In this document: in pieces, positions 1 through 23,975 of the stretch | Position numbering within the stretch: the first letter of the stretch is position 1 | Layout of the letters: each line of letters opens with the position of its first letter | Source of the DNA: Macrostomum lignano | Lineage: Eukaryota | Length of the DNA stretch: 23,975 nucleotides | Assembly (NCBI GenBank): GCA_002269645.1 | Contig: NIVC01005166.1 | Span: 1-23,975, forward strand | Direction of reading: 5' to 3' | Notes under the pieces: model-generated | The model's input: only the letters and a program-made list of their open reading frames with translations | What the model was told of the DNA's origin: nothing | The model's database searches: none | Made by a program: the position numbers and the translations under genes

Positions 1-209
1 CTCGTCAACGGCCAGGAATGGCCAGTTTGTCATCGACAGCCGGCTCTGCAGTCACGCTGATGCATGACTCTGCAGCCCAGCAGCTACAGCTACCGCTGCT
101 TGTAGTCGACAAAGGGGACACGGCACTGCTGGGACGAGACTGGCTGGCTCACCTTCGGCTGGACTGGCCGACAATTATGGCCCAGGTGCACGCCGTGTCG
201 ACGCGATAG
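1..209 (+). pseudogene. Retropepsin (aspartic protease) remnant
   Basis: LVNGQEW (frame 1), FVIDS (frame 2, 26-40) and GSAVTLM...LPLLVV...LLGRDWL (frame 3) rebuild the D[ST]G active site and LLGRD motif across two +1 frameshifts. The segment between the motifs looks shorter than usual. Confidence 0.75.
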
Positions 210-222
210 CGACATCAGCGAC

Positions 223-1565
223 TCGCTGTCCCGGCTGCCATTGCCGCAGCAGTTCGAGGAGAAGACAGCGGTTAACTCGCTGCTGATCGACGAGGGCGCA
301 GGTTCGGCCGCAACTGCAGCGACGGTGGCGCGGCTCACCAGGACGGATGCGGTGCTAGGGCGCGTGCTGCGCTGTCTGCAGACGGGTTCGACCATCTGCG
401 CCGACCTGACCGACTTCGCCAGGCGCCAGAGCGAGCTGTCCATTGACCAGGGCTGCGTGCTGTGGGGCGCTCGAGTTGTGGTGCCAGCCGCCTTGCGACA
501 ACAAGTGTTGAACGAGCTGCACCAAGCCCACCCTGGCATCAGCCGCATGCGCGCCCTCGCGAGAAGCTACGTCTGGTGGCCAAGTATCGACAAAGACCTG
601 GAAGCCGCAGTAAAAGCCTGTCGCACCTGCCAGCTCAATCAGGCGGATCCATCCAAGGCCCCGGTGCAGCCCTGGCCATTCCCGACTGAGCCATGGGAGC
701 GGTTGCACATCGACTACGCGGGACCTGTGGACGGCCGCACTTACCTGGTCCTGGTCGACGCGCACAGTAAGTGGCCAGAGGTGCACAGGGTGAGCAGCAC
801 CACTGCAACTGCGACGATCAGCTGTCTGCGAGAAATCTTCGCTCGTCTCGGCCTACCGAGAACCTTGGTGTCGGACAACGGGCCACAATTCGCTTCGGCC
901 GAGTTCGCTGAGTTCGTCAGTTCCAACGGCATCCGGCACATCTTCTCGGCGCCATTCCACCCGGCGACCAACGGCCAGGCTGAGCGCTTCGTCCAGGTGC
1001 TGAAGCGGCATCTGAGTAAGTGCGGTCACTCCGACGCGCAACTTCAACGACTGCTGATGGCCTATCGCAACACTCCGCACAGCGTCAGTGGCACCGCGCC
1101 GAGTCAGCTGCTCATTGGCCGCCGGCTGCGCAGCCGGCTGGACCTCCTGACACCATCGTTGACTTCGGCCATGCAACAGTGACAGCAGCATCAGCTTCAG
1201 CAGCAGCGGCCAGCGCGCCAGTTCCAGCCTGAAGATCGTGTGCTCTACCGCGATTTCAGCACTGCTGCTCGTGCAGGAGAAGCAGCCGCTGGGCCGAAGG
1301 TGTCATTGTCAATGCCGGCACTCGCAACTGCACAGTCGATTCTGGGCGCGGCGTACAAGCGCGACACGCTGACCAGCTGCTGGCGGCTCCCGCTGGGTTG
1401 GCCGAGTCGAATAGCAGCACAACCCCGGCCGAGGACTGCGCGGCACCTGACGCTGGCGGCACGCCAGCCTCGCCGCAGGCAGACACGGCTGACTCTGCTA
1501 ACGACGCACCCCGGCGCTACCCGACTCGAGTTCGAGCACCACCTGACAGATTGATGCTGCAGTGA
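223..1565 (+). pseudogene. Gypsy integrase with RNase H C-terminal remnant
   Basis: DSLSRLPLP (end of RNase H); zinc-binding LHQAHPG...CRTC; DDE triad LHIDYAGP / VSDNGPQF / NGQAERFV. After an in-frame TGA at 1180-1182 the frame continues RQFQPEDRVLYRDF. A frameshift near 1270-1285 leads to RWAEGV...RHADQL...RRYPTRVRAPPDRL and a stop at 1563-1565. Confidence 0.88.
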
Positions 1566-1840: not shown

Positions 1841-2420
1841 GATATACTGATATACTGTTTATGACGTTTTATGACTGATGATATGGTCATATGACAATGC
1901 TATTATCATAAGTCTACCTGAGCAAGAGCGGATTTTTGCTAATCAAGCTTAAGGTGTGAAGATGAGCACGGGAACTCATGCAGTGCTTTCAGTCGCCCGA
2001 AATGCTACCCCCCCCCCCAGGTTACCTTCTGCTCCGCTGGTCAATCGCGCGGCCAGGGGGAGCCAGACAGAATTCGAATCCCATTCTCAAACGCTCGGGC
2101 ATCGGTATGAATGCGAACTGCACGAGTGAGGAAGAAAATAGACTGCAATATCTAGGGCTGCCCATATCTCCTTGTGCATCACGAGTAACTGCGCCATATA
2201 AAGCACGTAGTGGGACTAAACTGCTAATCCTCTACGAACTAGCAAGCGAAGGGTTTTACGATGTGGGATTACTGGGATAATCGGCTTAGGCGGCAATGAA
2301 CGAGCCATTGAAAGGCGGCGCGGTTAGGAGAGATGCCTGAGTGACTGGGGACAGGACTTCACTTGTGTCTGTGCCAGGGAGAGGACTAACTTGCTCAAGC
2401 ATTGATCATGCAATTATACT

Positions 2421-4481
<2,061 letters not shown>

Positions 4482-5371
4482 TGAGATAGACAGACACTAG
4501 GACACTAATACAGACAGACAGACAGGCAGACAGGCAGCCCATGGACAATCAAAAAGCGGTCAGTACACCCAACCCAGAATCAACCGCAATCAGTCAGTAG
4601 TCTATTTATTGCTTTCCTTTGTCCCTTCGCTCCCGTTGATGCCCCAAATAGCGCCTGTCAGTCCTTTGTGTCGCTCCGCTTCATTAACCTCTTTTTCTGC
4701 GTGCCCCCAGCCAATGACACAGCCAGACGGGGCTCCATTGGCCAGCGGCAGGTAGGTGAGACAGAGCCAGGTGTTCTGCACTGCAAGCCGCGCTTCTTAA
4801 ATCAATCGATGATCAGCTCTGGACATCTCGAACTAATAAGAGCTACAGAATCCTTTCCCCATCTAAGAAAAGGGATCTTTTTGGCTTCTCCTCGGCAGCG
4901 GTTGTATAAAGCAATTCCATTTAGTTATTTCTTCAACAGCAACACTCAAGTCAGCTCCATTGCAGTGTCATCAGGAGACAGCAGCCCCTGAGTCTCGGCT
5001 TCAGACTCTTCTCAACTCTTCGAGTCTGAGCCCATTACCGAGTTTGAGCTGATAACCCAGCAGGACTTCGATAGGAGGAAAAACAATTAACAGTGGCTGA
5101 CCCCAAGCGAGGAAGCTTTAATAGGATAATCTCTAAGAGAGCGCTCGATCGAATCCCTAGAACCCAGATCGAAGTGGAGAAGCCAGTATAAGATAAAATA
5201 AGCAGAATTTCCGGCTTTATCGACGCGTCTTGAGTCGCTCAGTCTTGGCAGAAGAGCAGAGTGAGCCACCCAGCCACGCACCGGCATGAGCTGCAGATTT
5301 CGGCTGTGCCACTTGCTGGGGATTCTGGTGAGTTGGAACTCCTCGTTTATCTGCTGCTTACAGGCCTTGGT

Positions 5372-6048: not shown

Positions 6049-6540
6049 CAGGTGTCACTGGCAGTCCCTGGCACTGAATTGCAGGTGTCACTGGCACTGA
6101 ATTACAGGTGTCACTAGCACTGAATTACAGGTGTCACTGGCACTGAATTGCAGGTGTCACTGGCACTGAATTGCAGGTGTCACTGGCACTGAATTACAGG
6201 TGTCACTGGCACTGAATTGCAGGTGTCACTGGTACTGAATTGCAGGTGTCACTGGCACTGAATTGCAGGTGTCACTGGCACTGAATTGCAGTGGTGTCAC
6301 TGGCACTGAATTACAGGTGTCACTGGCACTGAATTACAGGTGTCACTGGCACTGAATTGCAGGTGTCACTGGTACTGAATTGCAGGTGTCACTGGCACTG
6401 AATTGCAGGTGTCACTGGCACTGAATTGCAGTGGTGTCACTGGCACTGAATTACAGGTGTCACTGGCACTGAATTACAGGTGTCACTGGCACTGAATTAC
6501 AGGTGTCACTGGCACTGAAATGCAGGTGTCACTGGCACTG
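6049..6540. repeat. 23-bp minisatellite CAGGTGTCACTGGCACTGAATT(G/A), about 21 units
   Basis: Unit starts at 6082, 6105, 6128, 6151 and onward; includes a perfect 140-bp higher-order duplication. Confidence 0.97.
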
Positions 6541-6821
6541 TTGCCCCAGATTTTACTGAAGTTTAATGAAGACATAAAAAAGTCACCGAAAGGCAAGATT
6601 TATTAACAAAAGACAAAATTTATCCCTCGAGTTTTCGCATAAAAGTACACAAGCGTCAGTCGAGCGAGATGAGCGAGGACTTGAAGGAGAGGAGATGATT
6701 AGGACAAATAAGGACCCTCTGGATTTTATTCCGAAGCGAACTTCCCTCGTCACTGTCAAACTCGCGACAGGCAAGAGTAAATTACATGTGGCAGGACCTC
6801 GACAACTGACATTCAATACAG

Positions 6822-7241
6822 ATACGCCGAACTGTCGTCTTGTTGCTATGCCATCCGTTGCTATGGCAACCAATCAATGCCGGAGACGCAAACACTGGCC
6901 GAATTCAAGGGAGATGGTCACGGTTCGAATTGGCCAGCCAGTCCTGCTGCAATGTCCGGTGCTTCAACGAAGCTTCTACACCGTCAGCGTCAAGCCGAAG
7001 TACTTGGAGTGGTCTTTGCCCATGGGCCGGCCGCAACCAACCAAGTGTCCGGTCTACCTGATGAAGAGCGAAGACGAAGAGCCCGGCTGTCCGGGTGAGC
7101 TGACGGGACTCGGCGTGTCCTTGTGGCACCTCACCCAGCTCAGGGTTCACTCGGCGGAGCTGAGGCACGAAGGCCTCTACAACTGCTCGGTGTACTGGAA
7201 TGCGACCGGGGTGAACGGGGCGGTGCAGCTGCTGGTGCAGG
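6822..7241 (+). CDS. RPTP exon 1 (first found): Ig-like domain
   Basis: [14 protein letters not shown]...LEWS...[18 protein letters not shown]. Donor G|GTGAGT at 7241/7242; acceptor CTGACATTCAATACAG| at 6821 is inferred; phase 1-1. Confidence 0.75.
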
Positions 7242-10200
7242 GTGAGTCGTGGGGTGTAGGAAATGGAGTGTGGGTGTGGGAAATAGGGTGCGGGAAATAG
7301 GGAGTGGGAAATAGGGTGTGGGAATGAGGTGTGGGAAATGTGGTTTGGGAAATAGGGTTGTGGGAAATGGAGTGTGGGAAATACTGTAAATTAAGACAGG
7401 TAAAGTGTCTATCTGAGAGTCTATCAGAGTTTTTGTTTCTCTGTCTGTCTGTCCTTCGTTTCTCTCTCTCTCTTTGTCTCTCCCTCATTCGCCTTGCAAA
7501 ACAACTCTCGTCTCTGTAAAAATTAGTGGTCAGTGAGCAGAAAACTTGGCATGTATAACACAGGTAATTTGCTGTTTCAACTGACTAACCAGACGATAAT
7601 CACAATGAAGGTCATTTTCATCGCAGTTTACAGAGTCAAGCACTCTTAGAAATCAGGCATGCCCTGCTAGCTTTTTGCTTGATGCATGTGGCAGCGAATA
7701 GAAAAAGTGGTTAGTCAGAATACAAGCTCATTCTCAAGAATAAGATTGGTAAAAGCATAATAGTGGTCTGGCACGGCGCTCTGATGTGCCAGCGGCCCAG
7801 GCTCGATTCCAAGTGCAGTCACATTCATTTTGGGCTAAATTGGAATCTCGGCTTGGCTCTGCTCGTGCAGTTAACGGCCTTGAGGGCCAACCCCCAAGGC
7901 ACAGTGAAGTGTACATGCCTAACGATAAATAAAGTTAGGGCCGCTGTACACTCCTGTGTGAGTGTGTGCCTGTGCGTATGACTGCGTACGTATCCGCGCG
8001 CTTGTGTGCCTGCTCAGGGGAGTCGGCGGAATGGGCAGCAATGCCTCTCGCCGGTTGTGTGACAATGTCGCTTAAAGTGCGCCAGGGTGCACACAGCCCC
8101 TTGCTTCTCAAAAAAATGGTACCCACCGCCCCGTGTGTAGCTAAGGTTGGCTCAGGAGGGAAGTCGCTTAGAACCGATGAATACGCACTATGCCTCAGCT
8201 TAAAAGAGGTCAGAAAGAGTCAAAAAACGGAAAGTAAAAAGATGAGCAGTTCGATTATATTTAGCGGAGAGGAAGTTAATTCGCACGACCGTAAAACGTA
8301 GTGCCGGAGTGAGGCGGCAAAGAGCTCCTAGGAATAATTGAAATCGGGGGTACCAGGCCTAAATGCACATCGCAGTGGATAAAATTAAATATTTCTGTCT
8401 CCAGGCCTTTTAAAGCCTTTGCAGATCCACTGCATTAGCGGGAATTTCTTCTTATAATTTATTGTCACTTGGACTGAAACCAGAGCTCCTGACCCGAGAG
8501 CTTCGAGAGATTATAACCTGGAGCACTTGATCCTGAAGTTGAAGGACATTGGGAGTGACTAGATTTTCGATTCTCTCGTACTTCTATTTTAAAAGACATT
8601 CACTTTGTTGAAGTTTTGTAACTTTCTCAGTTGATCCGCGCAGTACCGCTTGGACTTTTGTTGAATAAAAAAATCTGTTTTTGTTTATTGCGCGCTAAAA
8701 AATGCTCATGAGGCCCCAGCCCTCAAGGCACAGATTGTGTGCATGCCGGACACTGAGAAAGTCAGTGTCAGGCCGCCGTAAACTCTGTGAGTGTTCGTGC
8801 TCGGAGCTGCGTGGAACGGGCATGCTGCCTCTTCGCTGGCTTGTGGTTCGACCGTCGCCCTGACTAATTGCGACAGCGCCCACAGCGCTTTCCTGAGCTG
8901 TTTGGCCGGGTTCTTGGGCGAGCGGTTCTCTTCACGCTCGTAACTTCCAACTTGAAAAAAACTACTTTAGACTAGAAGATTTTGATCCAACCTAAATCAT
9001 TGACGATTCATTCACTATCGAATACCCCGAGTAGTCTTTATTCAGGATTTATCGGGAATCGTCGAAAACACCTGACAGACAAGCCAACAGCGCCGCTGCA
9101 CTTGAACGCTACTGTGCTTGGCTCGCACGCGATTCACCTGACTTGGCAGCCTCCGCGTCATCTGCGCCACCTGCCGTTGACCTCCTACGAAATTGCCACG
9201 AGCAGCGGCACCTATCGTCACCTTGGAGACCGATTGATCTGGCATAGAGTTGAGCCTAGACGACTCAGCTACAGGGTGACAGGCCTGACAGCATACACTG
9301 AGTACTGCACCTGGCTGCGAGCCGCTAATCAGCTGGGCCCGGGACCGAGCACTCGCCGCTGCGAGCTACGAACTCTGGAGTCTCCACCGCAGCCAGCGGC
9401 CCTGTCCGCTACCGTCACCAACGTCCAAGCCACCAGCGCCAAGCTTCGATTGAGCGTTGCACCGGCCGGGCATCCGTCTCTGGGCGGCAGACTGCGCGAG
9501 GTCCGGGTGCGATGGCGTCGGACGCGCCACCTCGAATCGCACGCAGGCATGGAGGATCAGTGGACTGAGAAGACACTGGTTGCTAGGCAGTTTCGCAGCC
9601 GAACCACTGCCAGCCAGGACGTTGATCTGATGCTCGATGATCTCGAAGCTTTTAGCGGCTACAGTGTGCGATGCACCGTGCACAACTGGAGATACGCTGG
9701 GCCGGAGCTTCTACTGACTTTTGAAACACTGGAGGGCGGTGAGGAGTCTTATCTGTAGTTTTTCTCTGAACCTGGATGCAGTGCCTAAAGTGGGGTCACT
9801 TTCAGAAAATCAAAATTTGCATAATAAAAAATTCACATTGTTACTTTCACCGGAGAAAAGCTTCACAAGCTCGAAATTTTCGATTCAGCAGAAGTGCAGA
9901 CTAGAATGCAAGCCTTTTTGAACTTGTGAAATTTCGATCTCACGACCCCATAAAGTGGTTTTCGGTGCAGAAAATTTAGAAAACATACGTCATGTGCAGT
10001 CTGGCGTGTTTTATGAAGACTTTGCAAAATGTAGTGATACAATCGATCTTGGTTTCTAACCAATAAAACATTCAATTCGATTAGAACGTTCTGGGTTTGG
10101 ATGCATTCAGTAGTTCTTAGCATCTTGAATCGATGCGGGATCAATGTTTTAAAAGGATACTTAGATTTCAAACTTTACATTTCAATGCAGAAGCCCCAGC

Positions 10201-13200
10201 GCCCACGCTGGCCCAGGACACGCACGCCCTGTTCGACACGAATGTCAGCGTCTCCTGGTCTCGTCTAGCCAGAGTGCCGGGCCACCTGACCGGCTACCAG
10301 CTCTCGTTGTCCGGCCCCTTCAACAGTCGCCGGTTGATCAACATTTCCAGCGAGTTCACTCGGTACTGCATCGCTGGACTAAAGCCGGCCACTCGATACT
10401 CAATCACCATAGCAGCTGTCACTCGCGTCCGAGGCCCTGGGCGCGCGTCTAACCGAGTAGACATCGCCACGGAGCCCAGCTGGCCAAGCCGGCCGCGAGA
10501 TGTCCGGGTGGATGAGAGAAGCTACGAAGCCGGCCTGTTGGTCTCCTGGGCCAGTCGCGGCTTCTTCGTCGGTTCGCCCGCGGTTGACCGCTCAGAAACA
10601 CCGTATCCGCCCAACCTGCTGCTGTTCAGAGTTGAATGGCGGCTACGCAAAGTCTCCCAAGGTCTGCGGCTGGCAGGACGTCCAGGTGGTTCGAGGGAGA
10701 CCCTCGTGCTGAGTCAGCTGGGCCAATGCCGGGTCAATGCGGCGTGGAGGCCCAGGGCCCAGGTCGCGAATGCAACAGTCTACCCAAATGAATCAGCAGA
10801 GGCGAGGACTAAATACCTGAGCACGCGCATCTGTGTAGGTTTTTATGCTAGCCTAAGATGATCTATTTCAAATAGTATTTCCTTGATCCCCCTAGACTGA
10901 TGTCACACGAGTCTTTTTGGTCAGTTTCACTGGATCCATTCGTCAGCTAATAAAAACAACTCTGACTTTGCACGGGCTCAATTTAATCTAGAGCATATCT
11001 AAATTTTCAAGCAAAAGATCAGGAAAAGGCATGGTTAAATGAATCGAATGCTCTTTAGATGATAGAAGAAAGAATATTTCTCGTACAATAAAGGTTGGGG
11101 CCTAATAGTACTTTGACGGCTTTCGTCATTTCATGGCTAATTTTATACGTCAAATTCCGTAGCGGAATGCACTTTTTCAGCTTCTGCAAGGGCAGCTGTT
11201 TTCTGCTGTTTCTGATGGGCGATTTTGAGGCTTTGTAGGCGAAAAAATATCATTTTTCTCTTTGTTCATCTATTCAGGAGCTTTGGCTTGCTGCTGGGCT
11301 GTTTGAGAACTGGGGAAGGGGCGCAAGACTGTCTTGTAGGGATGGCAGCAGGTAGCAACTGAAACCTGACTCCCACGAGTTGACAAAATGATAGCCCTCT
11401 CATCCTGTGCTTGTATAATTGTAGTCTGCACTGTCTTTAGTAGCTAACAGTCTGCTATTTAGGAGCTATGTTTTTTTCATAGCAGATATAGAGACAGCTT
11501 AACCTCGGCAAGCTTATGTTGAAAATGAACAACGCTTGCGGAACCTCCCTACGAGCGTACTACTCTAGTTGCATGCATTGACTTCCTTCTCTTTCCGCTT
11601 CGCCAATCGTTATAAAACGTGACATAAAACGCTATCGTTTTATATCAGATTCCATTGACTAAAAATGCGGAAAAATGGGGTTGTCAATCTGCGCACTGCT
11701 AGAAGTCAACCAGTTCGTAGAATTTGGGCAGTTACATATAACAGGCAATTTGATATCTCTTTAATAACAAGGATAAAAGTTCAGTAGCACTGGCGGTCGA
11801 ACTCAACTTTAAAAAACATCCACTGAAACAATTTCTTAAATCTGCCTCAATCAACTCAGGAGTTAATACCCTGGACAACACTGGCAAGATCAATCGGAAT
11901 TGCAATCCAGCAGCATTCGAATCCATCAGCGCATGTCAGCCTGGACGTCGTGGTAACAAGCGTTGGATTGTCCCAGTGGGACCGCGACCGCAGGTATCCC
12001 GGGCACAAGGCAAAAACCGTCAGCGTCTCTGTGCCTCTTGCATATCTGTTAATCGACCGTTCGACTTGGGACGGCCTGGCTGACTTTAACAACGAATTCT
12101 CTAACGGCGACGAGTCGGCGATAGCTACAGGAGATCGGCGACGCCGGCAAGTGACGTCGGTGAGCATTGGACTCGGCGTTGGCTGCCTGTTTGCAGCGCT
12201 GGGACTGGTGGCGGCCGTGCTGCTGGCCTGGCAGTGGCTCTGCGGCAGGGCGACGCGTCGGAACCGAGGCGTCGGCAGTGCCAGCTATCGCAGACGAAGG
12301 CTGCGCGCCGTTGGCAGCAGCATAGGCGGCGGTGGAACCAAAAGCGGCTGCGGAGTGGAGATTGGAGATTCCGGTTAGGACGCATGTTTGACCTGCATAA
12401 GAACTCAATATTAGAGTCTTTTTTAGAATTTTCATGGTAGATAATTCTTTTAGCTTTAGACATTTTGTCGCGATTTTTTAATCCATTGCGTCATGGAAGC
12501 ATGGCACTTTAACATAAAAGTTCTCTTCGATACTTTGCTTGCTGACCTAATTCTGTCAGCATCAATTCACAAGTTGCAAGCATCTAGCTTAGCCCAAAGC
12601 CATGCAATCCTTTCAGATCCACACGACCCTGCTCAAACATCGGCTCTTCTGAGTAACCCGGCGGGCATGACTATAGCCGAATTCCGGGATCACGTGATCG
12701 CTTGTCACGCCAACGACGATTCCGGCTTTCAATCGGAGTTCCAGGAGCTCCAAAGCTCGGACCCGCCGATCTCGTTGACTGCATTAGATTGCAAACCAGA
12801 GTCCGAGGACAAGGAGAAAACGACGCGCGAAGCTTTTGTAGCTGCGTGCTGGAAATATCCAGAAAATTTGAGTAAAAATCGACACCCAGATGTTTACCCG
12901 TGTAAGTTTGATTATTTACGTTGTCCTTTGTCGATCTAAGATATTGATTGTACTTTCAATGGCATCCTTAAACTAGTTGCTATAAAATTTTTACCAGGAC
13001 ACAGTTCTTAGTTGGTCAAAAGTTGCCTTTCTTAACCGTCAATACAAATGTCTCTTGATGGTCGCTCCTGTCTCTTGGTAGACACTCCTGTCTCTTGGTA
13101 GGCGCTCGTGTCTCTTGGTGGTCGCTCCTGTCTTTTGGTAGACGCTCCTGTTTCTTGGTAGGTGCTCATGTCTCTTGGTAGGCGCTCCTGTCTCTTGATG

Positions 13201-16200
13201 GTCCCTCCTGTCTCTTGGTAGGCGCTCGTGTCTCTTGGTAGGCGCTCGTGTCTCTTGGTAGGAGCTCGTGTCTCTTGGTAGGCGCTCCTGTCTCTTGGTA
13301 GGCACTCCTGTCTCTTGGTAGGCACTCCTGTCTCTTGGTGGTCGCTCCTGTTTCTTGGTAGGTGCTCATGTCTCTTGGTAGGCACTCCTGTCTCTTGGTG
13401 GTCGCTCCTGTCTTTTGGTAGACGCTCCTGTTTCTTGGTAGGTGCTCATGTCTCTTGGTAGGCGCTCCTGTCTCTTGATGGTCCCTCCTGTCTCTTGGTG
13501 GGCGCTCCTGTCTCTTGGTAGGTGCTCATGTCTCTTGGTAGGCGCTCCTGTCTCTTGATGGTCCCTCCTGTCTCTTGGTAGGCGCTCGTGTCTCTTGGTA
13601 GGAGCTCGTGTCTCTTGGTAGGCGCTCCTGTCTCTTGGTAGGCGCTCCTGTCGTTCGTTGTTATCTCCTAGACATAAAAATGGAGCCAAAAAGTTGCTAT
13701 CAGATGTGCTCCTGTCATTCGTCGAGTCTAGCTTGGTTACCAGTTTCATTTAGTTTTTGAGGGTAGCGCAATTTTCGCGGGGGCGATTGGTGACCTCCTG
13801 ACCGAGCCCCCCATCTGCTTACGTATTGATAATCCTGTGTATAAGCTGCTTTTCTCAGTCGCAATCAGAAGTAATAACTGCCGCTACTTCAGACGATCAC
13901 AACCGGGTCATACTTCGGTCAACTTCAACTAATAAGAAAAATGCCGACTACATTAACGCCAGCTATATTAGTGTAAGTAAAGTTTATTTATTTTGCTCAA
14001 GTATACTGATAGCACATACGCTAACACCTATTACCATCATTTTAAACTTTGAGCAGGGATTTAAAAAGAGCGAGCCTACATCGCCTGTCAGAGCCCTCTG
14101 CAGTCAACTTTTGATGACTTCTGGCTAATGGTTTGGGAGAATCGAGTGAGCAGCATTGTGATGCTGTGCAACCTGGTTGAGGCCGGTCGGGTGAGTTATT
14201 ATTAGTTCATTGACAAGATTAAATCTTGTCAAGATTAACTCTCTTTTCAAGATTAAATCTTAAGGGCAGAGTTTCTTCTTTGAGATCCTGTTCTCAAAAC
14301 CTAATTATAATGGAGAGATGGGATCGAACAACAAATATGAACAGCTAGTTTAAAAGAAGATTGCAGTTACTGCGCTCGTATGGTCATCGCTGGATAAAAT
14401 CTTTTTGTGCTTTGCATGACTCCATAGGATCTGAAGATGTTTTGCATAGCCGAAGCAATATTGTTTCGTCAGGGTCTTTTTGTGCTATGGCATAACATAT
14501 TAATGCTAACCTGTCAACTAATTCACCGTTTTACAAATTGCTTTAAATCCAACGAAACAGCGCAAATGCGATCAATACTGGCCTAGTGGCGGCAGCAGCC
14601 AGGTCTACGGTCCGGTGACTGTTGAGCTAATTGGACAAGCAGTCAGGTGGGATCACAAGGTGCGCCTGTTCGAGCTGCACTGGACAGGCAGCGGCAGCGA
14701 CAGCTCGCTCAGTCGCCGCCGAGTGAGGCAGTTCCAGTACTGCCGATGGCCCGACTGCGGCGTCCCGGCGTCGCCGCTGGCGCTGCTGAACTTCGTCCAA
14801 CTGGCTGGGGGCATCGACGAAGACAGAATGAACTCAACAGCCAGCTGCACTGGTGGGCCAATCGTTGTGCACTGCAGGTGAAGCTTTTAACGATCTGTGT
14901 GTAGCACGAGGGGAAGATGGGTTTATCGTGCGATTGGCAGCCATGAGGGTCAACCCTGGTCAAGAGAGTGTTCATGCCTGACGATCAGAAAGTCAGGACT
15001 GCTGTACACCCTGTGTGAGCGAGTGTGTGAGTGCGTGTCTGCAGAATGGGCAAAACTGCCCCAGTGCAGGTTGTGGGGAAACTAAGTCGCCGAAGGAAGT
15101 TCGTCGGCGAATAATTCTGATATTCACAGCTGTTTTTGTTTTTCATTCTTAGTTTTCATCTCAAAAGACTAGGCGACTTTGAAAATGTAGAGTCAGTTTG
15201 GAGAAAAAGATTGATTAAAAGGATAAAAGTTTTGACGTCTGAGGAAAGTCTAGTTAAGCAATGATTACCTGAAGCTTTAGTGACTTACGGTCAAAATTGA
15301 GCGGATTAGCAACTCATGAAATCGAGGGTTGTTTACAGAGTTTACAGAGCGTGTAAACAACAAATATTTTTAAGTGAACGAGCTTAGCACGGAAAAAACT
15401 TTTTGCTGTTTTTTGATCCATTTACTTCAGTAGTTCTCACAGCTGAGTCTTGGATGCATTAAAACTAGTGAGGTGCTCTCAGTCAACGAAAATGGAATGC
15501 TTCTAAAGTATTTCGAATGAAATTTCACTAAGGATATTAGCAAAGTCAAAAAATAAGCGTACCAGCGCGGTACTTCTTATTTATGAAGCATTTCCTATTC
15601 GAAATTTTCAAGACAAATAGCGAATTATACGATTTACCAAAACATCCGGCAACCTCCCTTGCCCCCAGCGCTGGCACAGGTCGCACGGGTGTCTTCATCA
15701 CTGTCGACGCTCAGATGCGCAGAATGCTCGGCGATAGGTCCGTCGACGTGCGCAGCTTCCTGGCTCATGCCAGGCGGCAGCGAATGCGGCTGGTGCAGAC
15801 AGTGCAGCAGTACGCTTTGGTGCACGACGTTCTACTGGAGTTTCTGCTGTGCCCCGAACGGAGGATCTCACGGCATCGGCTGACGTCCTGGGTTCGATCG
15901 TTGGCCGACAGAGAGCCGTGCGGTTGCAGCCGATTGGAAACTCAGTTCCAGGTGAGTTCACGATTCCAGTAGAACTTACTGGACAATGCTATTCGCTGAA
16001 AATTGACTTCATAAGTCCACTTTCAATTTTGGAACTCGTGAGTTTAATTTTGTATTGGCAACGCACGGGCGTAGTTACCATATTCTATCAGTTTCTTGTT
16101 GCCTACTTATCCTTTATCTTTAGGCAGAAATTCACTGTGTATGAATCTCTAGTCTTACTGTAATTTTAGCACTCGCCGTGCCGAAGTTGGCTATGATTGG

Positions 16201-18969
16201 AAATGGCGTTCGGGTGCTATAAAGGAAATTGAATCCAAGTTCCGCGCACTCGAGCGAAAATTGACGAGGAGAGGAAGCTCGTCATTCCCGAAGAAGCCAT
16301 CGCCACATGACACCGTGTACAGTGTACGACAACAAACAAGCATTGAAGATTCACGTACCTTCACTTTCTTTGATAACCATTGCTCAATGAGTTTTCCGGA
16401 CAGGGCGACTCTCGCGTGACGGGCCTGCTTTCAAAGAGCCAAAGTGTATCGGTATCAGGTTTAACTTTTAGGAGCTACTCTGCAACAAATGGCTTTGGTT
16501 GAAAGCGTGGCTTGCGTCATTCGGAAAAATGGAAATAGCAATGGAATCAGAGTGCTCTATTTTTGTTCTCTTTAAAGGGACTCTGAGCAGTTCACATTCT
16601 TTGATTTTTTGTCTTGATTTTCACAATCAAATGCCGATGTCCTGAGAAGCTAAAATGATTTTTACGTCTATTTTTACCTGCCCATCTTTCTCACTTAGCT
16701 TTGCGTTGCTCACGAAGCCAGCCACGGTGACTTTGAGGCGGCACTAAAGCCGTGCAATGCACAGAAAAACCGGGCGGATCCGAACTCTGGGGACTCCCCG
16801 GCCTACTTGCCGGCCGAGGAGGGCAGAGTCAAACTGACGCCAGAGCCTGGGGTTGAGGGGTCCGACTACATCAACGCAACGATTTTGCAGGTGAGCTAAT
16901 ACAGAGCGACACTAAGGCCGGTTTCGTTGCCACTTGATTAATTCTTAATCCACTTGATCAACACAACTTTATCAGCTTTAGTTGACCAGGATTCTCACGC
17001 AGTCTCAAGACGAATCTCCAAGGCTAGCTATACCTAATTCCATTATGCATCTCATGACCAAACAAGCCTAACTTTAAACAAATAATCTTTGAATACAATG
17101 TGAATTCTGGCATTTATTTTAGGGTTATCATTCAGCCAGTGAGTTCATTGTAACTCAGCACCCGACAGTCAATACCACTGGAGATTTTCTTCGAATGGTC
17201 TGGGAGCAAAACTGTGCGACAATAGTGTGCCTCCAGCCGCCCGAGGATCCGCTACCTTGCTGTCCTTGGGCTGAACACAATTCTGAACACCTGCAGTTGC
17301 AGCTTCGGTAAGGGCTTCTGAATTGTTTGGGTGCATTCCAACCCACAGAATATACCGCGATGTACACCATGTTTTTTAGTGGATGTCTTGGATGTCAGCT
17401 GGTTATGGAGATGATGTCACCGAAGGGCCGATATAGCTTGAGATCACACTTAGGCTGAAGTCAATTTAGCAGCACAAATAAGCGCTTCGTTCTTTGATTA
17501 ACTTCGCAATTCTGTAGATTTACGGAATGCCCTATGCATTTTAGCTTTTTATGAAGCCATATGTTGGAGACGGACCAACGCGTTAATCTGATGTGCCAGC
17601 GGCCCAGGCTCGATTCCAAGTGCAGTCACATTAATTTGTGGCTAAATTGGAATTTCGGCTTGGCTCCTGCAATTGACACCCTCGAGGGCCAACAGTGAGG
17701 TGTGCATGCCTAGCTATAGCGATAAATACAGTCAGGGCCGCTGTAAACTCCTGTGTGAGTGTGTGCCTGTGCGTATGACTGCGTACGTATCCTTGCGCTT
17801 GGTGCCTGCTCAGGGGAGTCGGCGGAACGGGCAGCAATGCCTGTCGACAGTTGCGTGACAATGTCGTTTAAAGTGGAAAATTTTCACCCTCGCTTTCAAA
17901 GCCATCGAGAAGAGTTTTCGTTTGCTGTGCGTCAGGAACTCCAGCTATCAACGCCCCGAGACGACTGCAGTCTCGCCACGGCCGTCTGGACTCTGCGACG
18001 ATGGCCGCAGACGCTGGGCGAGTCGCGCGAACTCATGCAGCTGGTGACAGCCGTTGAAGGCGAGACTTCCTGCGCCTCGAACCCGGCCGGTGGTAAAAAT
18101 TCGCCAATTATTGTAGTTGACGGGTGAGTCTTATCGGTCAGCCTAGACTCAGTTTTTATATAAGCACCGTATTTGAGTACTGATATGCCAATAATTATTT
18201 CAGTTTTGGTGGCAGCTATGCCGGCATATTCTGCTGTCTTTGCACTCTTCATCACCAGCTGCTGCACGAGGACTGCGTCGATGCTTACTCGTTGTTTAAA
18301 ATCTACCACAGCTTGAGACCTGGAATCTTTTACTCACAGGTAGGCGTCTCGAAAACTCACATAATATTTGTTATTTGAGGTGCTACCAACTGACAAGATG
18401 TAACATCCTCTCATAAGTAAAATCTAGTTAAGTAATATCAAAGTAACGTCTCAATAGCATCTTTCTAACAATTACGGCGCATCTCCATTTCGGCTAGGTA
18501 ACTTTTACGTAAGTACGTATTATACGTATTACATATTAACTACAAGCTTTAAAGAGCACCTAGAGGTCTTAGTATCTCTGAAGGATTGATTTAACAACAT
18601 ACAGTACACGTATAAGTAAAAAAATCTAGCTAAATAACGTCACTTATCTCTCAAATTAAGGCCGATCTTCAGTTCATCTACGAGGTGATTGAGTACCACG
18701 CCAGACTATTGACGGCGGCCAGAACTTTGGCGAGGTCAACGGCTTTGTCAGCATCGTTGGCTACGTCGGGCCATTCGCGGCGGCAGCAGCAGCAGAGAAG
18801 GCGGTCGCCGGGTCGGCAGTGGTCTCTGACAAGGCTGAGACAAGCGCTGGGCTCGACTGCGTCCTCGGCGACGCTATCGGCTCCTCCTGGAGAGTCCAGC
18901 GCCGCGACGCCTCTGGTTGGCCTGGCGAGCGGCTCGACTGGAGCCGGCGGCTGCGGGGTTCTGCCTTGA
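6822..18969 (+). CDS. Receptor-type protein tyrosine phosphatase, R5 (Ptp99A/PTPRG)-like; 14 exons, about 1470 aa, 5'-partial
   Basis: All 13 introns are GT-AG with matching phases, apart from one 1-nt frameshift inside exon 7. Motifs read: Ig, FN3, TM, D1 ([41 protein letters not shown]) and D2 ([20 protein letters not shown]). Confidence 0.88.
7251..7383 (+). repeat. G-rich GTGGGAAATAGG-like degenerate repeat
   Basis: Many GGG runs just downstream of the exon 1 donor. Confidence 0.8.
7755..8110 (+). mobile_element. tRNA-derived SINE, family A, longest copy
   Basis: A-box-like AGCATAATAGTGG and B-box-like GGCTCGATTCC (7800-7810); 7781-8079 is closely similar to 17588-17875. Confidence 0.7.
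8709..8870 (+). mobile_element. SINE family A, diverged internal fragment
   Basis: Shares CAAGGCACAG, TGTGCATGCC, GGCCGC.GTAAACTC, TGTGAGTG and GGAACGGGCA blocks with the other copies. Confidence 0.55.
9046..9738 (+). CDS. RPTP exon 2: two FN3 domains
   Basis: [24 protein letters not shown]...[12 protein letters not shown] and [12 protein letters not shown]. Acceptor TTTATTCAG|, donor G|GTGAGG; phase 1-1. Confidence 0.88.
10191..10834 (+). CDS. RPTP exon 3: FN3 domain 3 and start of FN3 domain 4
   Basis: VSVSWS...GYQL...[16 protein letters not shown] and PSRPRDVRV...LLVSW. Acceptor TTCAATGCAG|, donor |GTAGGT; phase 1-0. Confidence 0.82.
11860..12373 (+). CDS. RPTP exon 4: end of FN3-4, stalk, transmembrane helix, juxtamembrane
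   Basis: ELIPWTT FN3-like motif; hydrophobic [28 protein letters not shown] followed by basic residues. Acceptor CAACTCAG|, donor G|GTTAGG. Confidence 0.8.
12617..12901 (+). CDS. RPTP exon 5: wedge region and D1 motif 1
   Basis: [23 protein letters not shown]...KNRHPDVYP. Acceptor CCTTTCAG|, donor T|GTAAGT. Confidence 0.87.
13049..13652. repeat. 20-bp minisatellite TGTCTCTTGGTAGGCGCTCC, about 30 units, intronic
   Basis: Exact 20-bp periodicity with recurring variant units. Confidence 0.97.
13893..13972 (+). CDS. RPTP exon 6: D1 YDHNRVIL...DYINASYIS
   Basis: T|AC forms Tyr across the intron. Acceptor CTTCAG|, donor |GTAAGT. Confidence 0.9.
14057..14190 (+). CDS. RPTP exon 7: D1, contains a 1-nt frameshift
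   Basis: GFKK, then in a shifted frame [40 protein letters not shown]. The exon is 134 nt where 135 is needed. Donor |GTGAGT. Confidence 0.82.
14561..14877 (+). CDS. RPTP exon 8: D1 KCDQYWP, WPD loop, PIVVHC
   Basis: Acceptor AAACAG|, donor AG|GTGAAG in phase 2 at the conserved HC-S intron position. Confidence 0.92.
14944..15095 (+). mobile_element. SINE family A, diverged internal fragment
   Basis: TGAGGGTCAACC...CATGCCTGACGAT...AGTCAGGACTGCTGTACACCCTGTGTGAG matches the 7870-7960 region. Confidence 0.55.
15669..15951 (+). CDS. RPTP exon 9: D1 P-loop end and Q-loop
   Basis: [14 protein letters not shown]...[21 protein letters not shown]. Acceptor CCCCCAG|, donor |GTGAGT. Confidence 0.92.
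16699..16890 (+). CDS. RPTP exon 10: D2 start
   Basis: NAQKNR...[22 protein letters not shown]. Acceptor CTCACTTAG|, donor |GTGAGC. Too short for the ORF track. Confidence 0.88.
17123..17307 (+). CDS. RPTP exon 11: D2
   Basis: [37 protein letters not shown]. Acceptor TTTTAG|, donor CG|GTAAGG. Confidence 0.88.
17588..17875 (+). mobile_element. SINE family A, 5'-truncated copy
   Basis: Near-identical blocks shared with 7781-8079, including the B-box-like GGCTCGATTCC (17607-17617). Confidence 0.75.
17902..18123 (+). CDS. RPTP exon 12: D2
   Basis: [10 protein letters not shown]...RRWP...PIIVVDG. The phase-compatible acceptor CTTTCAAAG| is inferred; donor GG|GTGAGT. Confidence 0.75.
18204..18339 (+). 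CDS. RPTP exon 13: D2
   Basis: [45 protein letters not shown]. Acceptor ATTTCAG|, donor |GTAGGC. Confidence 0.88.
18661..18969 (+). CDS. RPTP exon 14: D2 last helix and Ser/Ala-rich tail to the stop
   Basis: [12 protein letters not shown] follows LRPGIFYSQ as expected for the PTP C-terminal helix. Acceptor ATTAAG|; stop TGA. Confidence 0.8.
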   Translation, partial: ADLQFIYEVIEYHARLLTAARTLARSTALSASLATSGHSRRQQQQRRRSPGRQWSLTRLRQALGSTASSATLSAPPGESSAATPLVGLASGSTGAGGCGVLP

Positions 18970-19120
18970 TTGAGTCTGTGCTCAATCAGCCTGAATGATT
19001 TTTTCGAATACATAAGTTTTGTGCCTTGTAAAACCGCCGCGCACCAAACACAATTACGAGAAAAGTACAAAAGTTTTACGCAAAACAACAGAAAAATCTT
19101 CTCGCTACTGAGCATGATGA

Positions 19121-20326: not shown

Positions 20327-20691
20327 AATAGAATGGATTGCTATTCTGGCTCTGGCTATTTTCGTTTTTGACTCTTTTGCATCCGGTTCCCCCCGTGCCT
20401 TTTCATTGGTTGATGATTGCCATAGACAATTTTCGGCCTTCGCCCCTTTCTTTCGATGCACAAGCGCTTTCGCTCGTGTTTTGAAATAAAGGGGGAAGAC
20501 CTACGAGCGCTCGATATTCTCTGCAAGTAACTGACATTCTCAGTTCTTTGCGCCTGTGCATCGAAAGAAAGGGGCGAAGGCCGAAAATTGTCTATGGCAA
20601 TCATCAACCAATGAAAAGGCACGGGGGGGAACCGGATGCAAAAGAGTCAAAAACGAAAATAGCCAGAGCCAGAATAGCAATCCATTCTATT
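20327..20691. repeat. Foldback / MITE-like inverted repeat with 141/142-bp arms and an 82-bp spacer
   Basis: 20327-20467 is the reverse complement of 20550-20691 except for one substitution and a C6/G7 run difference. Confidence 0.93.
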
Positions 20692-20766
20692 AGTGAAGGG
20701 GAGGCAAAGACAAGACAAACCAAGTGTGGCGATGGCGAGGCAGCGAAAAGCCAGAGGATGCAACCC
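20689..20766 (-). repeat. Split direct repeat B2 (element 3' terminus)
   Basis: 77 of 78 nt identical to 20993-21070. Confidence 0.9.
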
Positions 20767-20992
20767 TCAGACGATCGTATTTATTTCATGACTTGTTAAA
20801 ACGAATTAAACTGATTAAAAATTATAATTAGCGAGGAAAAAAAATTCAACCGCGAGCAACCCCGCGCAGCCACAAAGGTGGCGGCCTAAATAGGCACGCG
20901 CACGCACCAACGCACCCACCACCCCACCAGACAGCCAGCACCCAAACAGCACTAACAGCGGTTAGCCCTCGCGGGCTCGCGCAAACCGATGC
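20767..20992 (-). repeat. Putative A2 repeat between B1 and B2
   Basis: Position matches the A1...B1-A2-B2 layout and it contains a minus-strand AATAAA (20780-20785). The partner A1 is not in the window, so this is inferred. Confidence 0.55.
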
Positions 20993-21070
20993 ATTAGTGA
21001 AGGGGAGGCAAAGACAAGACAAACCGAGTGTGGCGATGGCGAGGCAGCGAAAAGCCAGAGGATGCAACCC
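20993..21070 (-). repeat. Split direct repeat B1
   Basis: Direct repeat of 20689-20766, about 110 nt after the YR stop. Confidence 0.9.
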
Positions 21071-21178: not shown

Positions 21179-22157
21179 TCAAAGGCAACTCTCGTTAAAA
21201 GCACCAGCAAAACGCGAACCAGCCCGCACAGAATCAGCAGATGGAAGGTAGGCAGTCACAGCATCACTTCGCCAGTCACCGATGCACTTCACCTCCTGAA
21301 CAGATAGTCCGAGACGGTAGGCCCAGGTGGCACCACCTCTGCGCAGGCTGTGCGCTGAGAAAGAACGAGCGTCCTGCTCAGCAGTTGCTAGGCAGCGCTT
21401 GAGGAACCTGTCGAATCTTGAGGCAGACAGGACAACAGAGGATCCGCTCGCCAACTGGTAGGAGAACACAGGCTGCCTGCAGCCAAGCTTGCTGACACGG
21501 AGGTGACCCTCTAGCGCAGCCACTGGGCAAAGCGGATGTCCTTCTTTTAGCCTTGGAAGCAACACCCGGTGCAGCTTCGCGCCGAACTGATTCGTCTTGC
21601 CATAACTGACAGAGAGCACAACCCCTTCGGGTGGCGTTGAAAGGCTGAGACGGAAATCGGTGAAGCGGACTGCTGACTGGGCAGGAGACTGGAGCGCCGA
21701 AACATCCCCCACCAAGCAATAAGCGTCACAAGCCAGCAGACTCTGTCAAGCGAACTGCTCGAGTTAAGCCGGTTTTTCACAGACAGCAGCATCGCAGGCG
21801 AGATCGGCAGCTTCCGTCTTGGTCGCTGGCCCATCCTCCGTTTAGCGCCGCGAACGAGCAGTGAGACCAGGTGGTGTTTTGTTAGGTCCTCAGCACCACA
21901 GGCTTTGAACCAGCTGGACAGTGCACTGACATGGACACGCAGACTGTTGAACGATCTCAGGCGGCATTCGACCAGGTGAGCCAGGTAGTTGAGTAGCACC
22001 GACCGGTCGGATCGAGCCGGGTTGGTCCCGTTCTCGTTGCAGAAGCTGTGCCAGGACCGGACGGCCGATGAGATCGCCCTGCGTGACTGCGGTGCGTATG
22101 CTGCGGCGAGGAGGCTGGAGGCGGTGGCGCCGAGGGTCGGCGTTGCAGGGAGGCGGC
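21179..22157 (-). CDS. Tyrosine recombinase (YR), split by one 1-nt frameshift, no ATG at the N-terminus
   Basis: N-terminal core-binding-like region (AYAPQSR...W...LNYLAHL), then catalytic GMFRRSS (R), GKTNQ (K), AHSLRRGGAT (HxxR), GDWRS (W) and TAY (Y). The frame changes near the C run at 21622-21625. Confidence 0.88.
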
Positions 22158-23909
22158 CTGTGAAAATAAAAAACGGGAGGCAAAAACAGAAAACGCGTGA
22201 TCCGAAAACTCCACAGGGCAAACTGGTACAGACCCGTAAACACGGAAAATAAAATTAAGCAACTCATGACGCGAGTGCAGGCGGGACCCTGCATCAGCAA
22301 ACAGCTGATAAGCACCAGGAACGTGAAAGACCTCAAATTCAACGTCAAAACGCAGACAGAGCAACGCCACAGACTGCAGCAACCACATCAGACGCGAGTC
22401 CTTGGAGACACCTCGCCTTAGAATCCAACACGCCGTCTCATTGTCGCAGTACACAGCAAGCCGACAACCAGCCAAGGATTGGCCCCATCTCAAAACAGCC
22501 AGCAATATAACCACAGCCTCCTTGTAATTGATGCAGTAATTCTGAAAAACACCATTTGCGTCGATCTGCCAGTCAATAAAGCACCAATCACGAATCCCAT
22601 CACCGTCACGGAGCACCGCCGCGGCGCCTGAAGACGACGAGTCAGTCTCTATGGCAACACAAGCCCTCGGCGAAGTCCACAGGCCAACACCGATGCGATG
22701 CTGCAAAGCCAACCGCCACCAGGAGAGGTGGTGCACCACGGAGGGACTAACAAGAACCCTGTCATGAGGTCGATGCAGCTTGTTAACAATGTCGATAAGA
22801 GGTCGGAGGAAAACTCTCCCGTGCCGAACAACTTGCGACGCCCAGTTTAACTTGCCGATCAACTTCTGCAAATACGACTTTGACAGCCTTTTCTTCGAAG
22901 AGCAGAGGGATAAAACATGCAACAAGTCTTGGACTTTTTCGGCAGGAAGAGACATCTGGCCTGCCACGCTATCAAATAAAATGCCCAGAAAGGTCATCCG
23001 CGTTGTCGGCGGAACACACTTGCTACGGTTAACGGTGAAGCCTAGCCGCTCGAGCAGATCGATGAGATGGTTGTAGAACTTCCAGCAGGACTCCAGATCT
23101 CCACAAAAGGCGAAGTCATCCATGTAGGCCTCCATAGCGTAGAAACCATGCTTCAACATCATAAAACGCACAGCTTGGCTCAGCTCGTAAAAGCAGAAGA
23201 CGGAAGCCGAAGCACCAAACGGGAGCCGCGTGTCGTACAGGTACACTGGCTGGCCCTCGCCTTGGAGCTGAATCTTCATGCCTGTGACCCGGTGGTCATC
23301 AGGGTGCACACCACATGAACGATATGCTTGCGACAGATCCACTTTGCACATGTACGCGCCGCTGTACAGCTTCGAGGCAAAGTTGCTGGCCGAAGTAAAA
23401 CGCAACTTCCGTTTCGACTCAAAGAAATCATTCACAGAGGCGCCAGTTGGCAGGCTGCAGTCGTGAATAAGGCGGATGGAAGACGAATCCGCCTTAGGGA
23501 TCGCACCAAGTGCACTAACGATGAGCGGCCGGTTGCCTGCCTGGCAGCGCCTGTAGCGGTCCTGCTTGAGCTCCTGGCGCACCTGGGCCTCAACAGCTTG
23601 CTGGTGAATGGTAGCTGATCTGTGATTTGCCATCTCAGTGTGGTTCTTACAATCCATCACTTTATTAGTAATTCGAAAGCCATTCTTCACACCATCGAGC
23701 ACGAACCTGACACGGTCCTCCGGCATCTCGGTCCCAGCCAGCTCTTCCCGCCAAACCGCAAACACAAGGTCGCTCGACAACTCAGTTGAACTCGGGTCAC
23801 ATAGGGGGAGCTCCCCGTGGGGGCACAGGAGGGCGACCCGACGGCAGACATTGAGTCCTGTGCCCCCACCTCGCACGCTAGTTTTTTGAAAATTGGCCCG
23901 GGTCCCCAT
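21957..23909 (-). CDS. Reverse transcriptase / RNase H ORF (650 aa, uninterrupted)
   Basis: RT motifs RLIHDCS, CKVDLSQAY, RLPFGAS, YMDDF, FLGI; RNase H motifs IETDSS, NYKEA, VYCDN, ADAGSR. Confidence 0.93.
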   Translation of the reverse strand: MGTRANFQKTSVRGGGTGLNVCRRVALLCPHGELPLCDPSSTELSSDLVFAVWREELAGTEMPEDRVRFVLDGVKNGFRITNKVMDCKNHTEMANHRSATIHQQAVEAQVRQELKQDRYRRCQAGNRPLIVSALGAIPKADSSSIRLIHDCSLPTGASVNDFFESKRKLRFTSASNFASKLYSGAYMCKVDLSQAYRSCGVHPDDHRVTGMKIQLQGEGQPVYLYDTRLPFGASASVFCFYELSQAVRFMMLKHGFYAMEAYMDDFAFCGDLESCWKFYNHLIDLLERLGFTVNRSKCVPPTTRMTFLGILFDSVAGQMSLPAEKVQDLLHVLSLCSSKKRLSKSYLQKLIGKLNWASQVVRHGRVFLRPLIDIVNKLHRPHDRVLVSPSVVHHLSWWRLALQHRIGVGLWTSPRACVAIETDSSSSGAAAVLRDGDGIRDWCFIDWQIDANGVFQNYCINYKEAVVILLAVLRWGQSLAGCRLAVYCDNETACWILRRGVSKDSRLMWLLQSVALLCLRFDVEFEVFHVPGAYQLFADAGSRLHSRHELLNFIFRVYGSVPVCPVEFSDHAFSVFASRFLFSQAASLQRRPSAPPPPASSPQHTHRSHAGRSHRPSGPGTASATRTGPTRLDPTGRCYSTTWLTWSNAA

Positions 23910-23975
23910 CAGCGTGGGCTCGGGCTTCAGAGTGCGGCTGTGAGCACCTGCGGCACTGATGGGCGAAGCGGCAGT
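23878..23975 (-). CDS. C-terminus of gag-like ORF1 with a Cys/His knuckle (partial)
   Basis: CRFAHQCRRCSQPH...FSKN-stop, typical of the DIRS/Ngaro gag C-terminal zinc finger; overlaps the RT start in another frame. Confidence 0.7.
   Translation of the reverse strand, partial: CRFAHQCRRCSQPHSEARAHADGDPGQFSKN

Follow-up and report, generated by a model that had tools for sequence, protein, structure and literature searches.

The window analysed here is a whole contig of 23,975 nt. The 3' part of a minus-strand retrotransposon occupies its last 3.3 kb and comprises the end of gag, a reverse transcriptase/RNase H (RT/RNase H) frame, a tyrosine recombinase (YR) frame, and split direct repeats; the contig end falls inside gag. 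The same insertion is present as L031 on contig C110, and the sister copy L032 gives the full plan of 4.47 kb (~4.5 kb), A1-gag-pol-YR-B1-A2-B2. The features of the window are the following.

23878..23975, minus strand: 3' end of gag with A-AAA-AAC before TAG; the rest of gag lies beyond the contig end
21957..23907, minus strand: RT/RNase H ORF (pol), Pfam RVT_1 and RT_RNaseH above cut-off; ORF limits taken from L032
22255..22257, minus strand: TAA after which the YR frame is open; the acceptor follows 32 codons downstream
22158..22193, minus strand: polypyrimidine tract and CAG acceptor; predicted intron end at 22158, in phase 1 relative to the YR frame
22167..22173, minus strand: T-TTT-TTA heptamer in the pol frame, within the tract; candidate -1 slippery site
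21179..22157, minus strand: tyrosine recombinase exon (core-binding and catalytic domain), Pfam Phage_integrase below cut-off; R, HxxR, and Y columns conserved
21832..21834, minus strand: first in-frame YR ATG (RRMG), 108 codons after the acceptor, beyond the SAM-like core-binding domain
20689..21070, minus strand: 3' split direct repeats, B1 at 21070-20993, A2 at about 20996-20838, B2 at 20766-20689

In L032, the split direct repeats lie at 4295-4463 (A1), 8373-8450 (B1), 8447-8615 (A2), and 8688-8765 (B2). Its gag-like, RT/RNase H, and YR ORFs follow in this order with 364, 650, and 358 codons and match Pfam SAP, RVT_1, RT_RNaseH, and Phage_integrase. The catalytic YR residues R153, H269, R273, and Y303 are invariant in 10 sequences, and R272 is found in 8/10. 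No Pfam match to a methyltransferase, protease, or DDE integrase was obtained in pol, gag, or YR (E 0.01-0.05), a search that a remote domain could escape. DIRS1-like elements are marked by inverted terminal repeats, an internal complementary region, and a methyltransferase; this set of traits is not found, as the repeats are direct and a methyltransferase match is lacking. From this structure, we assign the element to the Ngaro type, while PAT elements also have split repeats. The copy in the window is damaged: its YR is broken by a frameshift near 21625, where most sisters have an open frame of 326 codons, and it carries a 1-nt indel near 23812 relative to most sisters.

Several observations concern the surroundings and the other copies. 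The element is inserted in a high-copy palindromic repeat (window 20327-20691), and the 5' end of A1 is cut short at this locus. On the plus strand, at about 6500-19000 and tail to tail with the element, lie exons which by eye resemble a receptor-type protein tyrosine phosphatase (Ig, fibronectin III, phosphatase). Window positions 106-1182 hold a fragment that by eye resembles a Gypsy integrase, and positions 2395-4548 a tetranucleotide array of 2.1 kb. Most copies of the window family have a further open frame of 165 codons that spans the acceptor, the third minus-strand frame at 21890-22387. Deletion derivatives (L009, L026, L056, L060, L067, L069, L096, L100) join A1 or the gag start to pol or to the vicinity of the acceptor; in L026, the T-run at the end of A1 is joined to the acceptor tract.

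The YR frame has no start codon of its own where one would be needed. The original prediction had placed a TAA at 22255-22257 and the first ATG about 110 codons into the domain; both were confirmed on reading back the coordinates, with the ATG 108 codons on. The SAM-like core-binding domain gives a weak Phage_int_SAM_4 match to YR residues 15-86. As the first ATG lies beyond this domain, a protein begun there would be without it. The pyrimidine tract had been given as 35 nt ending at 22158. The tract and its AG are indeed at that place, although the span is 36 nt including the AG (22193-22158). In the YR frame, a Gly codon starts with the G of the acceptor AG, which makes the acceptor phase 1. 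With pyrimidines at 28 of the 33 positions preceding the AG, it stands at the top of the 169 AGs on the element sense strand in the window (the runner-up has 25), and in L032 it ranks 1/245 AGs under a generic acceptor score, which was our own and was fixed after the first sites had been seen. The tract doubles as the RT/RNase H tail, as had been proposed: the pol frame reads SRFLFSQ across it and stops 66 codons later.

Among 30 fetched relatives, CAG/G is kept in 25; the site is mutated in L020, and L027-L030 are without the region. The expectation that in sister copies the stretch from the upstream stop to the acceptor is free of in-frame ATGs held for L001-L024 and L026, but not for the decayed copy L025, which has one. 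The YR of L115 has no ATG within 330 codons. An in-frame ATG upstream of the acceptor does occur in some families (L052, L053, L068, L081, L116-L123, L132), and this counts against splicing.

A matching donor is located in gag. It reads CCG/GTGAGT after gag codon 146 and is phase 1, like the acceptor (L032 4910/4911). The site lies 556 nt beyond the window end, and the same locus on C110 carries it (G000:C110:20421/20420). Of the 197 GTs that L032 has from the 5' UTR to the acceptor, this one scores best. Upstream of it in gag lie a SAP domain (above the Pfam cut-off in 4/4 gags) and a coiled-coil-like stretch (by eye). Of the two places that had been considered for the phase-1 donor, the 5' UTR and gag, it is thus gag that stands and the 5' UTR that falls. 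With the donor in gag, YR would be produced fused to the N-terminal part of Gag (Gag-N–YR) and not on its own. The predicted intron is 2,374 nt long, and the predicted fusion has 472 aa.

To follow both sites across the Macrostomum lignano genome, we fetched 86 further loci by YR similarity, which together with L032 fall into 13 families; the counts below ignore shared ancestry. Between families, the median identity is 30% for gag and 40% for YR. The acceptor is found at the homologous place, the YR start, in 13/13 families. In a set of 41 loci, 33 have it in phase 1, six have an intact site and are frameshifted downstream, and two are without the site. The corresponding values for a set of 26 loci are 19, two, and five, and in a set of 20 loci, 15 are phase 1, and frameshifts, duplications, or deletions affect the others. 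Of the loci with a gag N-terminus, 36/36 have their best gag donor at the homologous xG[E/K] site (32 phase 1, four frameshifted), and so do 11/12 loci of two families found later. The donor is kept in 11/11 testable families; for the two remaining families, the fetched copies do not include a gag start.

The predicted splicing product also exists as DNA. In a search with P0088, 1/118 hits spans Gag-N and YR in one frame. This hit, L215 (G000:C3137:10500-16500, minus strand), is a 2-kb element with complete A1...B1-A2-B2, a single open SAP-coiled coil-YR frame, and no N. It is 99.5-99.7% identical to L073, which belongs to a sister family of the window's and has the donor GTAAGC, and the predicted intron is exactly absent. 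The plain reading is that L215 derives from a reverse-transcribed spliced RNA, and it may be a recombinase-only non-autonomous element. It is the single intron-less copy seen in the assembly among 40 matches of its family. No intron-less copy was found among 29, 23, 41, 26, and 25 matches of five other families, the window's included, and six other candidates with long frames proved not to be intron-less.

Transcript contigs were examined as well. In the assembled Logan contigs of 8 of the 24 listed runs (run kinds guessed), no donor-to-acceptor joint was present; as such contigs drop rare variants, the missing joint is no evidence either way. Single contigs bridge donor and acceptor unspliced in runs X1, X5, X9, X12, and X13. 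A contig break in X6 at L032 7282/7283 and the end of a minor X1 contig at 7283 adjoin the acceptor; this candidate was dropped, as X13 and X14, from the same study as X6, are without it. A joint in X12 ("5368 to 1227") was dropped as a splice because the A1/A2 repeat and the truncated A1 of L031 account for it. A slightly higher contig depth over YR was set aside as evidence.

Elements from elsewhere were collected in a metagenome scan of 80 loci, of which 22 were dropped (YR start not reached or <200 nt upstream) and 58 were scored, forming 32 clusters. Near the YR start, 50/58 loci and 30/32 clusters have a phase-1 site as their best acceptor, compared with 85/223 (38%) control windows further inside YR. 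A gag frame was available in 12/32 clusters, and the best gag donor is phase 1 in 11/12. Codon-shuffled gags give phase 1 in 55-65%, against which the 11/12 outside clusters reach only p=0.04; donor phase alone is weak evidence.

Public gene models with such joins were found, one from Macrostomum lignano and several from amphioxus, and may be ab initio. P0088, among the best 150 profile matches, joins exactly as predicted for family F11. The amphioxus models P0180 (with YR) and P0197 (without YR) have their first 173 residues in common and diverge at K-G-K. P0197 continues as a non-YR frame beginning with G-K, as expected from a phase-1 donor, and the cluster of P0180 has four members of 503 aa. 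An hhalign comparison of P0197 with flatworm gag gave no match (probability 1.3%). A protein search with YR alone (36 hits) showed no fusion among the five hits examined. A search with the N-terminus of P0143 returned no full gag, only homeobox chimeras. Two amphioxus RefSeq models, P0195 and P0196, combine a homeobox exon with a sequence related to the N-terminal part of the YR fusion P0143; the join falls at nearly the same position, which is what splicing from an element's donor into a host gene would look like. The UniRef entry P0038 joins a family F8 YR to a host methionine synthase and is probably an annotation chimera.

The matching sites, their conservation, and the natural intron-less copy together support the env-style spliced subgenomic mRNA of the original prediction. 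We consider it likely, with a probability of about 0.88, that YR is expressed from such an mRNA, in which the phase-1 donor in gag is joined to the acceptor at 22158 and a Gag-N–YR fusion is encoded.

The explanation in print is a -1 programmed ribosomal frameshift from RT/RNase H in the overlap, which would yield a Gag-Pol-YR polyprotein and make the T-rich tract a slippery site. Such a frameshift was called probable for YR by Poulter and Butler (2015), as quoted in section 17 of PMC13003380, and according to the excerpts of PMC3783388, the YR of fungal Ngaro elements can share the frame of RT-RH. YR does lie in the -1 frame of pol, and the window family and L049-L051 have the canonical T-TTT-TTA in the frame of pol, which puts it at that place in 2/10 clusters. 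However, a canonical heptamer is absent near the acceptor in most genome clusters and in 23/26 outside clusters (present in 3/26), YR-frame stops are as near as 2-10 codons upstream, and in 2/26 outside clusters, the acceptor TAG is itself the pol stop. A frameshift accounts for neither the conserved gag donor nor L215. Hence, we regard it as improbable as the general route, although it could be a minor second route in the window family.

Even less probable is that the splice-like signals are by-products of protein constraint, the tract reflecting a hydrophobic-Gln tail of RNase H and the donor a Gly-Glu motif of Gag, and that L215 arose by a DNA-level or template-switch deletion at a microhomology. 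The pol frame reads x-L/F-x-F/L/S-Q in 13/13 families, which fits a constrained tail, but the pol tail past the site varies from 8 to 305 codons, and outside elements use TAG in place of CAG and vary the junction residue (G, D, A, E). Synonymous codons are also fixed or skewed at the sites. The donor Gly codon is GGT in 11/11 families, while GGT makes up 18% of Gly codons in these gags. A single codon throughout was found in 0/24 other conserved gag columns and 0/24 YR columns, control columns which share the same ancestry. In L072 and L073, Glu is replaced by Lys at the donor, yet the donor is retained (GTAAGC). Purines number 45 in the six pol codons before CAG, whereas their residues would predict 72. 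The constraint at the splice sites is thus one that, judged from these codons, acts on nucleotides and not on protein. As for a deletion, large internal ones are common (18 others in 70 copies), and the L215 junction has 5 nt of microhomology, CAGGT, which is common to the donor and acceptor sites. However, an element contains about 8,500 such microhomology pairs, and by a rough estimate, 19 deletions would hit this one with roughly 0.2% chance. As a separate observation, L079 and L080 are the copies in which the pol frame remains open for 305 codons past the acceptor, over almost all of YR.

Flatworms trans-splice a leader that ends in AUG. That the acceptor is paired with this leader or with another 5' partner (internal promoter, host exon), or that YR starts upstream or at a non-AUG codon, has in its favour this AUG, the upstream ATGs of some families, and the models P0037, in which the acceptor is used with a different, doubtful donor, and P0188, which also places another first exon onto the acceptor; it is nonetheless very improbable, as a leader AUG joined at the acceptor would read the pol frame and stop after 66 codons, the upstream ATGs are unconserved and absent from the window family, and the gag donor and L215 identify the partner.

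For splicing from gag to YR, we propose the following course. The host spliceosome would splice a share of the full-length transcript and remove 2,374 nt, comprising the C-terminal half of gag and nearly all of RT/RNase H. Translation from the gag ATG would then give 146 Gag residues (SAP domain, linker, and coiled-coil-like stretch), the junction Gly, and 325 YR residues. Without splicing, the RNA would continue to encode Gag and, by recoding at the stop of gag, Gag-Pol, and it would remain the template of reverse transcription. Signals for such recoding are present at the gag-pol junction: among the gag ends of 11 families, A-AAA-AAC stands directly before the stop in six (in the window at 23887-23878, minus strand), and TGA-CT is found in five. 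The former likely directs a -1 frameshift into pol. The latter likely allows stop readthrough, pol being in the gag frame in L057, L061, L062, and L107. More speculatively, the shared coiled coil may co-assemble YR with Gag, so that YR travels with the cDNA, and the SAP domain may tether YR to DNA. The spliced RNA would retain all terminal repeats and could itself be retrotransposed. Slightly better than even, in our estimate, are the odds of a wider version, in which phase-1 splicing from gag to YR is ancestral and general in animal Ngaro elements, the Gag part loads YR into the particle, and the spliced RNA founds intron-less recombinase-only elements.

The proposal bears on two questions: how a recombinase lacking a start codon is expressed in YR retrotransposons, for which the review view assumes a frameshift, and how the enzyme reaches the cDNA. 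If splicing is the route, two exact splice sites and a fusion protein can be named for YR expression. In these flatworm families, the integration enzyme would be equipped with a SAP domain and a coiled coil, features relevant to packaging and to the choice of target, and Ngaro insertions would bring a strong donor and a strong acceptor into host genes.

Spliced subgenomic mRNAs are known for env of gypsy and of avian retroviruses, in which the donor lies a few codons into gag, for foamy-virus pol, and for the spliced gag of copia. As in retroviruses and LTR retrotransposons, one primary transcript would serve here as genome and pre-mRNA, and a downstream ORF would be reached via an acceptor hidden in the end of pol. 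Unlike spliced env, the product would be an integration enzyme, predicted to keep 111-146 Gag residues with whole domains and not a short leader.

With the Ngaro superfamily (order DIRS; excerpts of PMC9210276, PMC3783388, PMC3266345, PMC8547959, and PMC13003380), the element shares the split direct repeats, the gag-RT/RNase H-YR order, a YR that overlaps the end of pol in the -1 frame, and the lack of a visible methyltransferase. For comparison, we used excerpts of PMC9210276, PMC3783388, PMC7192593, PMC4157794, PMC8547959, PMC6681497, 10.1101/2021.04.08.439009, PMC6431247, PMC13003380, PMC2632668, PMC4495291, PMC3266345, and PMC9940879. The search returned no report of Gag-YR splicing in these excerpts, and an earlier mention is possible in founding papers, subscription journals, Repbase notes, or supplements. 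The published Ngaro account, in its excerpted form, calls a frameshift probable and names no splice. The present elements differ from it in that the gag donor and the acceptor are both conserved and an intron-less copy exists, all of which point to splicing. The element itself is of a known kind, and as far as the literature searched goes, the proposed Gag-YR splicing is the new part.
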